Shown: positions 11,165-60,044 of the stretch, piece by piece
Position numbering within the stretch: the stretch's first letter is position 1
Layout: every line of letters starts with the position of its first letter
NCBI GenBank assembly: GCA_024614665.1
Contig: GCA_024614665.1_4861.1
Reading direction: 5' to 3' (one strand)
Source: a phage
Length of the DNA: 64,000 nucleotides
The notes under the pieces: model-generated
What the model was told of the DNA's origin: nothing
Databases searched by the model: none
Seen by the model: only the letters and a program-made list of their open reading frames with translations
Translations under genes and position numbers: made by a program

Positions 11165-11179
11165 AGATAATATCTATCT
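11165..11179 (-). promoter_or_regulatory. promoter-like 15-bp element, type A (plus strand AGATAATATCTATCT)
   Basis: Exact 15-mer shared by 5 sites; about 40 nt upstream of ATG 11125. Confidence 0.5.
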
Positions 11180-11230
11180 CAGATTACTTTGGGCACGGGT
11201 TCATACCCAGTGCCCGTAACGTAAAAAACT

Positions 11231-11929
11231 TTAGGGTATTAGGCGTTGGGCTATTTCGCGGAGTTGGTCGCGGGTTAAATCAGCCAACTTCTGGTCGCCG
11301 AAGCCCAACTTCAGACCCAGCTCGTACCCAGCTTGCGGATACGTGTTCGTGTTTGCTACTGAGAGGAGTGCATCGGCTATCTTTACCATCGTTAACTCGA
11401 GAGACGCATACGGGGCGGGGATCGGCTGATTCACGATTTGGTAATTATAACGCACTGCGGCGTTATCGTAGTCAAACTCCATCCTTCTGCCGAGAACGTT
11501 AAACGACTCCGCAGAATAACTACCAAATGGGTGATTGGCTTTTTCCCACAAATCTTTCCGTTCAGTAAACCCAGTCGCGAAGTTCTGACGTATGGTGTCG
11601 AATATTTGCGTTGCCTGGCTAGGGTGTATATTTTTCAGCTCATTGTAGTCGTAGTCGGCGATGGAATATAGAGTGAACACAACACCGTTTATATTTAACT
11701 GCGGATAATCCATCCGCAGACTGTCATCACCTTGTAAATGAAGTTCCCACATCCTTACCCACTGCAATATCGCGCTTACCGCATCGTGACTGAGATAAAA
11801 ATTAGTAGGTTCTTCAGGATTTTCACGGAAGGGAACAGAGCATTCCGATACAAAAAAGCCGGCTGCCATAAATCCTCTGCCGTCGAACATAGGCGCAACT
11901 AATCTTGATTTTTCTAAATTGATTACCAT
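11231..11929 (-). CDS. hypothetical protein (232 aa)
   Basis: ORF track; ATG 11929; promoter-like element 41 nt upstream. Confidence 0.55.
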   Translation of the reverse strand: MVINLEKSRLVAPMFDGRGFMAAGFFVSECSVPFRENPEEPTNFYLSHDAVSAILQWVRMWELHLQGDDSLRMDYPQLNINGVVFTLYSIADYDYNELKNIHPSQATQIFDTIRQNFATGFTERKDLWEKANHPFGSYSAESFNVLGRRMEFDYDNAAVRYNYQIVNQPIPAPYASLELTMVKIADALLSVANTNTYPQAGYELGLKLGFGDQKLADLTRDQLREIAQRLIP

Positions 11930-11969
11930 TACTGTCTCCTTAAGTTAAAACCGAACGACTCTCTCCCTA

Positions 11970-11984
11970 AGATAATATCTATCT
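11970..11984 (-). promoter_or_regulatory. promoter-like 15-bp element, type A
   Basis: Exact copy AGATAATATCTATCT immediately downstream (minus sense) of a terminator and 41 nt upstream of ATG 11929. Confidence 0.5.
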
Positions 11985-11988
11985 ATAA

Positions 11989-56635: not shown

Positions 56636-56647
56636 GGTTAATAATCC

Positions 56648-58348
56648 TTAATCAATGAGACCGTTGCCGAGTCCGTTTCCGCCTATACCGCCTAAGCCAC
56701 CACCCAGGTCAAGACCTCCAAGAGGATCTAAGCCACCTGTGTTAGTTGGAATGTTAGATAGCATTCGACCCCGGCCTTGGCCTTTCTCGAATTCTGTATA
56801 ACCTTCTTCCACGGCTTTCAACAGCGTTGCGGTGTTCTGTGCCAGCTCACCAACGTATTTGAGATCGGTGGTGTTGCCGGTATGGAGACGGAATTGCATA
56901 AACGACGCGTAGGTGTAATATTCCAGCGGTTCGTCGTCGACACGGATTTCAATACGAGTAACGGTCCCCAACAATGCGGTGACCAGCATGTGACAGCGAA
57001 TATGGTTATGTTTAGTAACCTGAACCATCGCTTCTTTCATGTTCTGCAAGAAACGACGACCTAATGCAGCAGGTAACTGATGATGTGTGATGCTGCTGAC
57101 TGAGTTAGGAATAACTTCCAGCGTAGGCTCTATCATGATATCCGTGTTGCGGTTATCAAAGACAAAGCTCACTTCGCCAATCAGGTTACGTGACATAATC
57201 GGCCCGATAGACATAGCCAGATCATACGCAACTAGACTACCCTGAGTAGAAAAGCCGTTACGTCCAATCCAGTGGTCGGTTTGGTTAACCAGCCCTGCAC
57301 CCAACCCACGGCGACTTGCCAGCGCCAGCGATTCACGGATACATTCATCCAACCGCATTGGGTTGACAATCGCATTACGCAAATCAGCCAAACGGAACGT
57401 CGCCTTACTGGTTGCTTTCCAGCCGCCAGATACATCAGACATTCCGTTTTGCAGTGCTTGTCGCATCGCAGCAATCAGTTCGTGGTTGCTGTAGTTACGA
57501 ATAACACCGCGTTGCTTCAATTCAGATTCAACGCCGATGGAGTTATTACCTGCAAAGAAGCTTTCCACGCTACCGAGTTCGGTATCTACCCCAGAGCTTG
57601 CCAGATACGCATTACTGATTGCAGATACGTAGTTTTCCGGACGCTGGAGTTGGGATACCATCAACTGTGGTGCAGAGCTACTGGTTGCGGACAGCACAGA
57701 GTCGCTCGTTGGAACGAACTTCTCACCGCTGTTCATTTCAATACGTTTTACCATATCCGCTGCTTTCGCGATCGAAATGATATCTACCGTACTTTCTGTT
57801 TGACCTTCAACAGACAGCGCTTTCGATAAAACGTAGTTATCCAGTAGACGGAATGAGTCTGGGTTCAATGTTTTGCCGCCCAGGGCATCGTGTGTATACG
57901 TTGCCTGTAAGCCGTAGATGTCGTTAATGTACAACACCATATCGTCCGGCAGCAGGCTACCCAGGCTGGTTTCTGCCTGACTGGTATAACCGGAGACGAT
58001 GTATTGCGTTTCCTGAGTGCGTGTTGCATTCAGAGGTTTAGCAATAAACACCGCCACGAAGTTAAAGATACCGGTATCACGCGATTCCCATTGGAACTGT
58101 ACAGGACGATTGTCATCATCGGACACGTTGATGAATGGACGCTCAAAACCATTCTGGGTGCCATCGAAGCCCACGATGGCAGATAATGCTTCTTGATACT
58201 GCTGTGTTCCCACAGCTTTTTCCCCGCCCAGTTCAACCGCTGCTGCTAAGTCATCCAGAGCACCTGTCGATGCGTTAAAGCCGATGCGGCGACGAACTTG
58301 CTCTGGAACATCGTAGACCGGATACATCAGTAGATTTACAAGCTGCAT
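56648..58348 (-). CDS. hypothetical protein (566 aa) with Gly-rich C-terminal tail
   Basis: ORF track; C-terminus GGLDPLGGLDLGGGLGGIGGNGLGNGLID. Confidence 0.55.
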   Translation of the reverse strand: MQLVNLLMYPVYDVPEQVRRRIGFNASTGALDDLAAAVELGGEKAVGTQQYQEALSAIVGFDGTQNGFERPFINVSDDDNRPVQFQWESRDTGIFNFVAVFIAKPLNATRTQETQYIVSGYTSQAETSLGSLLPDDMVLYINDIYGLQATYTHDALGGKTLNPDSFRLLDNYVLSKALSVEGQTESTVDIISIAKAADMVKRIEMNSGEKFVPTSDSVLSATSSSAPQLMVSQLQRPENYVSAISNAYLASSGVDTELGSVESFFAGNNSIGVESELKQRGVIRNYSNHELIAAMRQALQNGMSDVSGGWKATSKATFRLADLRNAIVNPMRLDECIRESLALASRRGLGAGLVNQTDHWIGRNGFSTQGSLVAYDLAMSIGPIMSRNLIGEVSFVFDNRNTDIMIEPTLEVIPNSVSSITHHQLPAALGRRFLQNMKEAMVQVTKHNHIRCHMLVTALLGTVTRIEIRVDDEPLEYYTYASFMQFRLHTGNTTDLKYVGELAQNTATLLKAVEEGYTEFEKGQGRGRMLSNIPTNTGGLDPLGGLDLGGGLGGIGGNGLGNGLID

Positions 58349-58360
58349 TTTAAATACTCC

Positions 58361-59995
58361 TTAAGAATTAAACCATTCAACTTCTTCTAACTTGCGACGT
58401 GCATTCAACACCATAAACTCCGCCAGGCTATTGTGCAGTGACAAGTGAGGTATATAGTTTGGCTGATCCGTCTCACACTTCAGCAGCACAGCTGCTTCTG
58501 GTGTAGCCCTGAGATGGAACAGATACGGGTTGATGTGATCCTTGTGTAACAAGGTCAGTGATTCCCGTGGTGTAGATTGCGGTTCGAGATTACGCGGGTT
58601 GCGATACTCCTGAAGATAATATCTATCTAAATCTGCTTTGAGTTCAGATCGAATTGGGTCGGCTGCGTAACCGGCAGACATCTCAGAACGCACCATATTG
58701 CAACTTAACAGTTGCGCAACGTCATACATTCCGTAATTGAGATAAGTTGCCTGTGCTAACGCCATGCCGTAGCGAAACGCTTCTGGTCCACATTCAGTAT
58801 ACGTCTTATAATGCGCGCTACGATGAAGTGCTAATGCGACTAACCATTCGTGGAGCGTATAGACAGGACCGTCGTGTGTTGCCAGTTGCGAATCAATCAA
58901 TAACTTAACATCTGCTGGAGCGGCATTATCCAGGCGCATTGTTTTCAAGAAAGAGCGGTATTCTTTAAATACGTACTCGGTACGGACGTATTCTTTCATC
59001 TGGGCAGGAGAACGTGCCTGCACCAAATCCATGGCGTTTATCTTACCCTTTTCGCCATTGAATACCACACTTTCTGGATGCGCTTTTAACAGCACCGGCT
59101 GGTTAGAGATTTTATTTGCAAAACCCGTTTCAATCTCTTGTTTAACCAGAAAATACATGCCGGTGACGATATTGTTGTTAACCATGATTTCAACCGGTAA
59201 TTCACCACCGACTTCACGGACAGCCAACAATTTAATAATAGCATACGCCAGGATATAATCTTCCATCATATCCGTGCCATAGCCCCGCACCGTAGCCAGT
59301 ACCGACAAACTGGTGCTGTTCGTACCTTTGTTTGCCAGTTCTTTTTCTACCTTTTCCATCACTGTCTGTAGGAACCCACGCAGTTTCGGAATAGCAGGTA
59401 AAGACATGACTTCTGTGTCTTGAAGCATCTCCAGACAGTATGTCAGATTGTACACCATTTTCCGATGTGTTTCGATTGGCAAGTTCTTACCTATCGGGAA
59501 CGTCCCCATGGTGAGGAACACCGGAATATACGGTTTAATCGTCAGGACCAGTATCAACAACTCGTAATAGTCCGGACGAATGTACGTCATCGCTTCCGGA
59601 TAATTACTGTTCATTTCATCGTGTGTATCTTCCATGTTCTGCGGAATCCACAGCTTATCGATGGGATACAGCTTACGATACACTTCAGCCTTGTGGAACT
59701 TCGCAATCGTCTGCACAATCTTCGGCATGTGCTTACGCTGCGTTTCCGTCGATTCGTTTGCCAGCTCGTCCAGCATCAGATACGCCATGAACAGTTCATC
59801 TTGTTCGTCTGGCGTTAAATAATCCCACACGCGTTGTAATTCCATGAAGAGAATGTTGTCGCGTGCAATCTGTTTACCTTTAACAGTGATGTAGTCGGGT
59901 GCGTTGTTATCCTTCCGATAACGTAAGCCAATAAATGAGACCTCTTGACCATGATGCTCGATTGTCATCCGGTCTTTAATCTTCGTAATTTTCAT
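58361..59995 (-). CDS. hypothetical protein (544 aa), candidate early gene
   Basis: ORF track; promoter-like element 35 nt upstream of ATG; second copy embedded near its 3' end. Confidence 0.55.
   Translation of the reverse strand: MKITKIKDRMTIEHHGQEVSFIGLRYRKDNNAPDYITVKGKQIARDNILFMELQRVWDYLTPDEQDELFMAYLMLDELANESTETQRKHMPKIVQTIAKFHKAEVYRKLYPIDKLWIPQNMEDTHDEMNSNYPEAMTYIRPDYYELLILVLTIKPYIPVFLTMGTFPIGKNLPIETHRKMVYNLTYCLEMLQDTEVMSLPAIPKLRGFLQTVMEKVEKELANKGTNSTSLSVLATVRGYGTDMMEDYILAYAIIKLLAVREVGGELPVEIMVNNNIVTGMYFLVKQEIETGFANKISNQPVLLKAHPESVVFNGEKGKINAMDLVQARSPAQMKEYVRTEYVFKEYRSFLKTMRLDNAAPADVKLLIDSQLATHDGPVYTLHEWLVALALHRSAHYKTYTECGPEAFRYGMALAQATYLNYGMYDVAQLLSCNMVRSEMSAGYAADPIRSELKADLDRYYLQEYRNPRNLEPQSTPRESLTLLHKDHINPYLFHLRATPEAAVLLKCETDQPNYIPHLSLHNSLAEFMVLNARRKLEEVEWFNS
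58613..58627 (-). promoter_or_regulatory. promoter-like 15-bp element, type A (inside coding sequence)
   Basis: Exact AGATAATATCTATCT inside gene 58361..59995, about 265 nt upstream of the next gene start (58348). Confidence 0.35.
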
Positions 59996-60029
59996 TATAG
60001 TTGAACTCCGCGAATAGTCGATTGCACTG

Positions 60030-60044
60030 AGATAATATCTATCT
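60030..60044 (-). promoter_or_regulatory. promoter-like 15-bp element, type A
   Basis: Exact copy 35 nt upstream of ATG 59995. Confidence 0.5.

Follow-up and report, generated by a model that had tools for sequence, protein, structure and literature searches.

Candidate early promoters of the virion RNA polymerase in an SPN3US-like jumbo phage

A 64,000-nucleotide (nt) stretch of phage DNA (NCBI GenBank assembly GCA_024614665.1, contig GCA_024614665.1_4861.1), analysed at its full length and called the window here, carries seven copies of an AT-rich element on the strand of its minus-strand genes. We consider these elements, with a probability of about 85%, to be early promoters of an SPN3US-like jumbo phage that are read by its virion RNA polymerase (vRNAP). 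An original prediction had read them as early promoters of a phage RNA polymerase (RNAP), and this is now supported by their match to the early-promoter consensus sequences of phages OBP and N1M2, by their orientation and position, by the operon for the non-virion RNA polymerase (nvRNAP) behind one of them, and by their conservation in four genera. The sequence analysis establishes the motif with its statistics, the strand and position rules that it obeys, its agreement with consensus sequences from the literature, how it is conserved, and what the nvRNAP genes downstream are. The vRNAP as reader, the start site and the early timing are assigned because of homology with phiKZ and 201phi2-1, in which starts were mapped.

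At 98.8% identity, the window matches the Salmonella jumbo phage SPN3US (Seoulvirus), its plus strand corresponding to the SPN3US minus strand. An SPN3US-like source is phiKZ-like (Chimalliviridae), a nucleus-forming jumbo phage with both a vRNAP and an nvRNAP. That both enzymes are encoded is indicated by the identity to SPN3US and by open reading frames (ORFs) of the window that match phiKZ nvRNAP chains. SPN3US packages a five-subunit vRNAP (gp42, 218, 240, 241 and 244), found in virions by mass spectrometry; the enzyme is essential, and particles without it are not viable (PMC5694885).

Seven copies of a 32-nt element on the gene strand

The 15-mer AGATAATATCTATCT occurs five times exactly on the plus strand of the window, at 11165–11179, 11970–11984, 54871–54885, 58614–58628 and 60030–60044, and no exact match was found in 100 dinucleotide shuffles of the window. 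The original prediction had the same count and four of these positions right, but placed the fourth copy at 58613–58627. It had also listed two exact copies of the 26-mer TCACCTAGGTAATATATATCTGAAAT, at 19036–19061 and 27539–27564, which we recovered and of which none is expected by chance. Read on the minus strand, five copies have the form AGATAGATATTATCT (type A) and two the form AGATATATATTACCT (type B); as had been noted, the two types share 13 of 15 positions. Allowing up to three mismatches to the 15-mer added the cores of the two 26-mers, a palindromic echo and one chance-level match, and nothing else.

Alignment of the flanks of the seven sites revealed that the element spans about 32 nt rather than 15 and reads AA.AAATTTCAGATAKATATTAYCT..GTGA. 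Every site has an AA dinucleotide 9–10 nt upstream of the core and a G five nt downstream of it, while position 13 alternates between T and C, giving two subclasses, the GATATTAT-type (A) and the TATATTAC-type (B). A 32-nt weight matrix was built from the seven sites and used to scan the window on both strands. The seven sites scored 36–41 bits, the next best matches 10–17 bits, and shuffled sequences 17 bits at most; because of this gap, the family is all-or-none in the window. Scanning the window with the matrix and with the short cores ATATTAT, ATATTAC and AAATATTAC yielded no weaker copy between 17 and 36 bits. Since all other scores fall within the range of shuffled sequence (17 bits or less), the degenerate copies suggested earlier at about 26728–26738 and 16783–16794 are unsupported. 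Both score below 8 bits, and the first, at 26734, keeps only the 7-mer ATATTAC and has five mismatches to the 15-mer.

Two minus-strand copies of AAATATTAC, at 26726–26734 and 63908–63916, are intergenic and lie 40–55 nt upstream of ATGs. SPN3US has only the first of them, neither has the extended consensus, and both are probably chance matches.

All seven sites point in one direction, that of the gene strand, and six of the seven are intergenic. The gaps between core and minus-strand ATG at these six sites are 39, 40, 57, 48, 30 and 34 nt, in line with the earlier claim that six copies stand just upstream of a minus-strand ATG, and the remaining site is within ORF 58361–59995. Because intergenic DNA makes up about 4.7% of the window under a hand-made gene model, the probability of finding at least six of seven sites there is about 7e-8.

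The element matches early-promoter consensus sequences of related phages

The predicted early-promoter consensus sequences of other jumbo phages read TBYAWWWWWTTTCARRYAKATATTATYWAAGTGWA in N1M2, BSHAWWWWWTTTYARRYAKATATTATYWWADTG in OBP and ...TTTRARR_BTATATTACDWHDGTG in 201phi2-1, and that of phiKZ is TATATTAC (PMC7058600 Table 2). The last of these bears out the phiKZ core that the original prediction had named; type B contains it exactly. The SPN3US consensus agrees with the N1M2 and OBP strings at nearly all positions and contains the core TATATTAC of phiKZ and 201phi2-1, so that the AT-rich core of about 10 nt and its flanks are both those of the relatives.

The OBP consensus was used as an outside probe on both strands, and its seven best matches in the window are exactly the seven sites. 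They have two to six mismatches and the next best match has eight; the best match per shuffle had six to nine, with one of 20 shuffles reaching six. With the N1M2 string as probe, six of the seven sites stand clear, and the intragenic site ties with background at 11 mismatches. Among the matches listed in a scan of IMG/VR with a 16-mer, most were single chance matches; there were also multi-match contigs of 220–250 kb, and jumbo-phage contigs carried several copies. A literature search with the SPN3US motif string returned nothing relevant besides the N1M2 paper.

According to a review, the motif can be found bioinformatically in every jumbo phage that encodes RNAPs, and transcript profiling, where it was done, identified it as the consensus of early promoters: the vRNAP reads a stretch of about 10 nt, rich in A and T, whose centre lies near -10 (PMC7598289). 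In both phiKZ and 201phi2-1 the AT-rich motif stands ahead of early transcripts that are independent of host RNAP (PMC7598289, PMC8244752, PMC11512511). Mapped transcription start sites (TSSs) of 201phi2-1 lie about 10 bp downstream of the motif (PMC11512511). Early start sites were also mapped in phiKZ, in which most 5' untranslated regions (UTRs) are 31–40 nt long (PMC8244752). The G found five nt past the core at all seven sites of the window is compatible with a start about 10 nt downstream of the core centre, and the 5' UTRs predicted from it, 26–53 nt, are comparable with those of phiKZ.

An nvRNAP operon and other units downstream of the sites

One type A element (54865–54896, minus strand, 35.9 bits) stands 30 nt upstream of a two-gene minus-strand operon, 50498–54840, whose products are homologues of phiKZ nvRNAP gp71-73 and gp74. 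Gene 52603–54840 matches chain C of the phiKZ nvRNAP structure 7OGP (PHIKZ071, E 2e-29) and gene 50498–52603 matches chain D (PHIKZ074, E 9e-39). The original prediction had a copy preceding an RNAP beta-like gene, which is this site. A strong terminator, 50494–50476, closes the operon. In a Pfam search of seven proteins neighbouring the sites, the RNAP domain RNA_pol_Rpb2_6 was the sole match. As the nvRNAP cannot transcribe its own genes before it exists, the position of site 54871 supports an early promoter.

The remaining elements are likewise on the minus strand. The type A element AAAGTAATCTGAGATAGATATTATCTACGTGA at 11159–11190 (40.6 bits; four mismatches to the OBP consensus over 33 nt), with its presumed +1 G at 11160, is upstream of gene 10121–11125 and of further genes downstream. 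A second type A element, at 11964–11995 (40.6 bits; two mismatches to OBP; +1 G at 11965), precedes ORF 11231–11929 and directly follows terminator 12034–12009, which itself lies downstream of the major head protein gene.

ORF 11231–11929 (minus strand) is intact in the window, encodes 232 amino acids without a Pfam match, and is flanked by these two promoter copies. At SPN3US 72500–72684, a deletion of about 625 nt has left about 115 nt of its 5' end and brings the two promoters to within 198 nt of each other. We considered whether the promoter repeats had served as recombination endpoints and rejected this, as window and SPN3US differ at 11165–11984 by a plain deletion of about 625 nt within the ORF.

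Both type B elements head units that end at hairpin terminators. The element AAAATAATTTCAGATATATATTACCTAGGTGA at 19036–19067 (41.0 bits; three mismatches to OBP; +1 G at 19037) is followed by a cluster of small genes from 18984 to about 18471, closed by terminator 18459–18436. Upstream of it are a hairpin at 19220–19196 and a palindromic one at 19092–19114, which the scan called on the plus strand. The second, at 27539–27570 (38.8 bits; recovered by the OBP probe; +1 G at 27540), is preceded by terminator 27622–27597 and lies upstream of genes 26735–27496 and 26131–26676, in a unit that ends at terminator 26124–26102. Terminators or hairpins just upstream, which the original prediction had described as usual, thus occur at sites 11970, 27545 and 19042.

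The last two elements, both type A, lie ahead of and within one ORF. That at 60024–60055 (39.2 bits) lies 34 nt upstream of ORF 58361–59995 and is preceded by hairpin 60111–60092; that at 58608–58639 (37.8 bits) lies within the coding sequence of the same ORF, and the ATG of gene 56648–58348 follows 265 nt downstream. Presumed +1 G residues at sites 54871, 58614 and 60030 are 54866, 58609 and 60025.

The hairpin at 60092–60111 is downstream of gene 60131–60784 and has its T-run on the plus strand, not on that of the genes; read in the direction of the genes, it therefore has no U-tail. ORF 58361–59995 corresponds to RefSeq gp236 of SPN3US (NC_027402, 23886), whose RefSeq start appears to be set 27 nt too far downstream. 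The start ATGAAAAT, 34 nt past the promoter core, is found in the window ORF and in SPAsTU, Asesino, Huxley and Kwan, where the gene is annotated to begin there. Over the stretch of the gp236 start, the SPN3US record and the window are 98.8% identical.

Genome-wide distribution in SPN3US

The whole SPN3US genome was searched in pieces by pattern, allowing up to two mismatches, which was the check that the original prediction had proposed. The search gave about 21 credible sites and one doubtful one, at 224830. The credible sites all lie on the plus strand, that of the genes; 20 of them are intergenic, 30–140 nt upstream of a start codon; the elements are thus co-oriented with operons and placed upstream of them both in the window and in SPN3US. 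The consensus of 22 aligned candidates is TC.AA.AAATTTCAGATAGATATTATCTA.GTGAGA.

Genes downstream of the sites encode mostly hypothetical proteins, plus the nvRNAP. RefSeq gp232/231 has a site directly upstream, and gp243 is within an operon that has two sites upstream. Across the whole genome, no minus-strand gene (these are mostly structural) is preceded by a site, and none was found upstream of the vRNAP genes.

Conservation in related phages and a probable promoter within a gene

We compared orthologous regions in Seoulvirus (SPAsTU, pEa_SNUABM_29), Erskinevirus (Asesino, phiEaH2), Machinavirus (Caitlin, Huxley, pSal-SNUABM-04) and Wellingtonvirus (Kwan). Three orthologous positions were covered in these four genera, one in nine phages and two in five. 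The elements proved conserved at all three, synonymous codon positions included. Ahead of the nvRNAP beta gene (site 54871), ATAKATATTATC is invariant in 9/9 sequences and stands at the same distance from the ATG. At site 60030, the core ATAGAT(A/T)TTATC is conserved in five phages. The hairpin ahead of it is conserved in four of the five, Kwan being divergent there, and its pairing is kept by compensatory changes (GCCCAAGGG, GCCCGAGGG, GCCCACGGG).

The intragenic site 58614 was found in all five genomes examined. Its 13-nt block GATAGATATTATC is invariant in five phages of four genera, within coding sequence that is about 65–70% identical on either side. The block spans the codons GAT AGA TAT TAT (D R Y Y), which show no synonymous change, whereas neighbouring codons vary synonymously. 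This argues for selection on the DNA itself, and hence for the seventh site being a real promoter within a gene. It presumably feeds the two genes downstream, 56648–58348 and 55268–56635.

Type B elements are followed by a hairpin and usually a leader box

From the presumed +1 of the type B elements, the minus-strand transcript of the window would begin with a hairpin. At 19020–19037 it is GAUAGA-AGACAA-UCUAUC (-5.9 kcal/mol, with 0.4% of shuffles as good), and at 27521–27540 it is GAGAUUGC-AUUG-GUAAUCUU (-6.7 kcal/mol, with 0/500 shuffles as good). In SPN3US, all seven type B sites (gene strand; 4427, 56294, 65413, 94239, 113986, 165687 and 223277) are followed by a hairpin of 6–9 bp that begins at the presumed +1 G. 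The summed folding energy of the first 23 nt is -51.2 for the seven type B sites, against -6.7 ± 3.3 for shuffles (z -13.7). For 15 type A sites it is -30.4 against -18.3 ± 5.3 (z -2.3), and the GATATTAT-type promoters are mostly without the hairpin.

Type B cassettes recur in other genera, with the hairpin present in three of four (Caitlin, pEa_SNUABM_8 and Asesino); that of Huxley folds weakly (-2.9 kcal/mol, with 17% of shuffles as good). Stem sequences vary between copies (GAGATTGC, GATAGA, GAGAGTT, GAGCGTTA, GAGATTC) but remain paired. The Asesino cassette, upstream of gp72, is syntenic with site 27545, as it follows the internal head protein gene and shares the terminator; its stem pairs as well, though the sequence is different. 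The same holds for the Caitlin and pEa_SNUABM_8 cassettes, which are at unrelated loci. When Machinavirus was compared with window 26600–27900, the sole similarity detectable by blastn was a cassette of about 75 nt made up of terminator tail, promoter and leader (window 27515–27591). In Huxley, Caitlin and pEa_SNUABM_8 this cassette is 80–83% identical and occurs at two to four places in each genome, always in DNA without annotation.

Between promoter and ribosome-binding site lies a further conserved sequence, a leader box AATCGACTAT(TAATCTAAAGGAG), on the minus strand at 19005–19014 and also at 60014–60023, 27509–27518 and 26698–26707. Written as AAYCGACYATTA, or AAYCGACYAT(TA), the box directly precedes the Shine-Dalgarno sequence, 18–35 nt ahead of the start codon, and is always on the gene strand. 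SPN3US has it at 65455, 94280, 114030, 167592, 223318 and 224197 (gene strand). It is present, too, at genes without an early promoter of their own. Type B is usually coupled to this box as well (AAYCGACYATTA...AAGGAG), and the cassette is kept across genera while the surrounding genes diverge. No Rfam family matched anywhere in the window at the gathering score, the conserved leader and the hairpin included.

A 5'-terminal hairpin can stabilise an mRNA in Escherichia coli. If the type B hairpin forms the 5' end of the RNA, it may protect some early mRNAs from host decay that depends on the 5' end; alternatively, it may be a handle for a phage RNA-binding protein or translational regulator. 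The leader box is a possible signal for translation or RNA processing. We tentatively suggest, at somewhat less than even odds, that the phage has two built-in early-promoter classes and that the type B (TTTCAGATATATATTACYTAGGT) cassette, in either role of its hairpin, would give two kinetic or stability classes of early mRNA. No description of this two-class arrangement of hairpin and leader was found in the literature searched.

Discussion

Taken together, we propose the following course of early transcription. The five-subunit vRNAP would be ejected into the cell along with the DNA and would recognise an asymmetric element of about 32 nt, composed of an A-rich tract, TTTCAG and a ATAKATATTAYC core centred near -10. 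Initiation would take place about 7–8 nt downstream of the core at the conserved G (GTG|A), and short same-strand operons would be transcribed up to hairpin terminators, often located directly ahead of the next promoter. Terminator 12034–12009 is followed in this way by the promoter core at 11984, and terminator 27622–27597 by that at 27559. One early operon would supply nvRNAP subunits, and the nvRNAP would then take over later transcription.

Several points weigh against this proposal. Our literature search found no data on transcripts, their timing or their polymerase dependence for SPN3US-type phages. The +1 positions are extrapolated from the location of the motif in the literature, 'about 10 bp upstream of the TSS', and one of the seven sites is intragenic. 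In 201phi2-1, not all nvRNAP genes are near an early promoter, so early expression of these genes is not universal (PMC11512511). Finally, the core holds a hexamer, TATTAT, that resembles the -10 box of sigma-70 promoters, and some use by host RNAP is possible.

This resemblance could mean that the elements are host sigma-70 promoters of the strong early kind known from T4 or T5, which we regard as improbable. The TATTAT or TATTAC of the core matches TATAAT at five or four of six positions, the A/T-rich tract upstream might serve as an UP element, and the start would lie about 7 nt downstream of the hexamer, as in sigma-70 promoters. However, a sigma-70 scan called none of the seven sites through the motif hexamer, there is no -35 hexamer at 16–18 nt, and the expected -35 position reads nAnTCn, so that the sites do not qualify as members of this class. 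The conserved positions extend beyond sigma-70 contacts (TTTCAGATA, GTGA), no sigma homologue is known for the vRNAP of these phages, and phiKZ uses the same motif independently of host RNAP. Sigma-70-like matches are also no more frequent than in shuffled sequence (17 against 20.5 at 10000–29999 and 25 against 23.3 at 46000–64000), while terminator-like hairpins are enriched about twofold in the 10–30 kb region (42 against 20.2). A lack of enrichment of the former together with an enrichment of the latter agrees with a genome that can do without promoters of the host type.

It is slightly less probable still that the nvRNAP, rather than the vRNAP, reads the sites as middle promoters. Some nvRNAP genes of 201phi2-1 are indeed read from middle promoters (PMC11512511), but in phiKZ late promoters consist of TATG at the start site and middle promoters have just a weak motif, AT-rich and located at -24 (PMC7598289), and the motif here fits the early class. 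It also stands ahead of the nvRNAP genes, whose transcription by the nvRNAP would require an already existing polymerase. This position and the different form of the known nvRNAP promoters make the nvRNAP an unlikely reader. We give the lowest probability of all to the elements being chiefly the operator of a DNA-binding regulator of the phage, or else a repeat that serves recombination or belongs to a mobile cassette. An operator is suggested by the partly palindromic AGATAATATCT; type A has an 11-nt palindrome (the source of a reverse-strand match), which would suit a symmetric DNA-binding regulator, and the type B cassette of about 75 nt is multi-copy and the sole DNA still similar between genera. 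Type B, however, lacks the palindrome, the flanks are asymmetric and conserved, and the approximately 21 genomic copies are all oriented with the downstream gene.

As early promoters for the vRNAP, the elements map the promoters in 64 kb of an SPN3US-type phage, a kind that serves as a genetic model for jumbo phages that form a nucleus. Seven early transcription units would be defined by the map, among them the nvRNAP operon, along with a conserved promoter within a gene. The map could serve annotation, guide the design of reporters or of engineered phages, and help to select templates on which to test the still-unpurified vRNAP. It leaves the known picture of transcription in these phages unchanged. 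The motif class, the enzyme that reads it and a near-identical consensus have already been published for related phages, and in this respect our finding is a rediscovery; only the type B cassette of hairpin and leader and the intragenic promoter under codon constraint might be new.

Among known systems, the Bacillus jumbo phage AR9 likewise has an AT-rich motif near -10 that is read by its vRNAP upstream of early operons. Its motif differs in sequence, however, its DNA contains uracil and it forms no nucleus. Early transcription that is resistant to rifampicin and independent of protein synthesis is described in the literature for phiKZ and AR9 only.

The closest likeness is to OBP and N1M2, with a near-identical element of about 33 nt comprising an A/T tract, TTTCAG, an ATAKATATTAY core and a downstream GTG. 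Copy numbers are similar (31 in N1M2, about 21 in SPN3US), and in these phages, too, the sites precede hypothetical genes and an RNAP beta gene. They differ in host and phage genus, their sites are bioinformatic predictions only, and the T/C alternation at position 13 with its two subclasses is particular to the phage studied here.

With phiKZ and 201phi2-1, the SPN3US-like phage has in common that an AT-rich core precedes the start, presumed here, by about 10 bp, that the -20 and -30 regions are conserved, and that the polymerase set consists of vRNAP and nvRNAP. Most copies here (type A) read GATATTAT and the flanks differ, whereas type B holds the exact TATATTAC. The starts of phiKZ and 201phi2-1 were mapped by 5' RACE (rapid amplification of cDNA ends), dRNA-seq and ONT-cappable-seq and attributed to the vRNAP, while those of the present clade are predictions.

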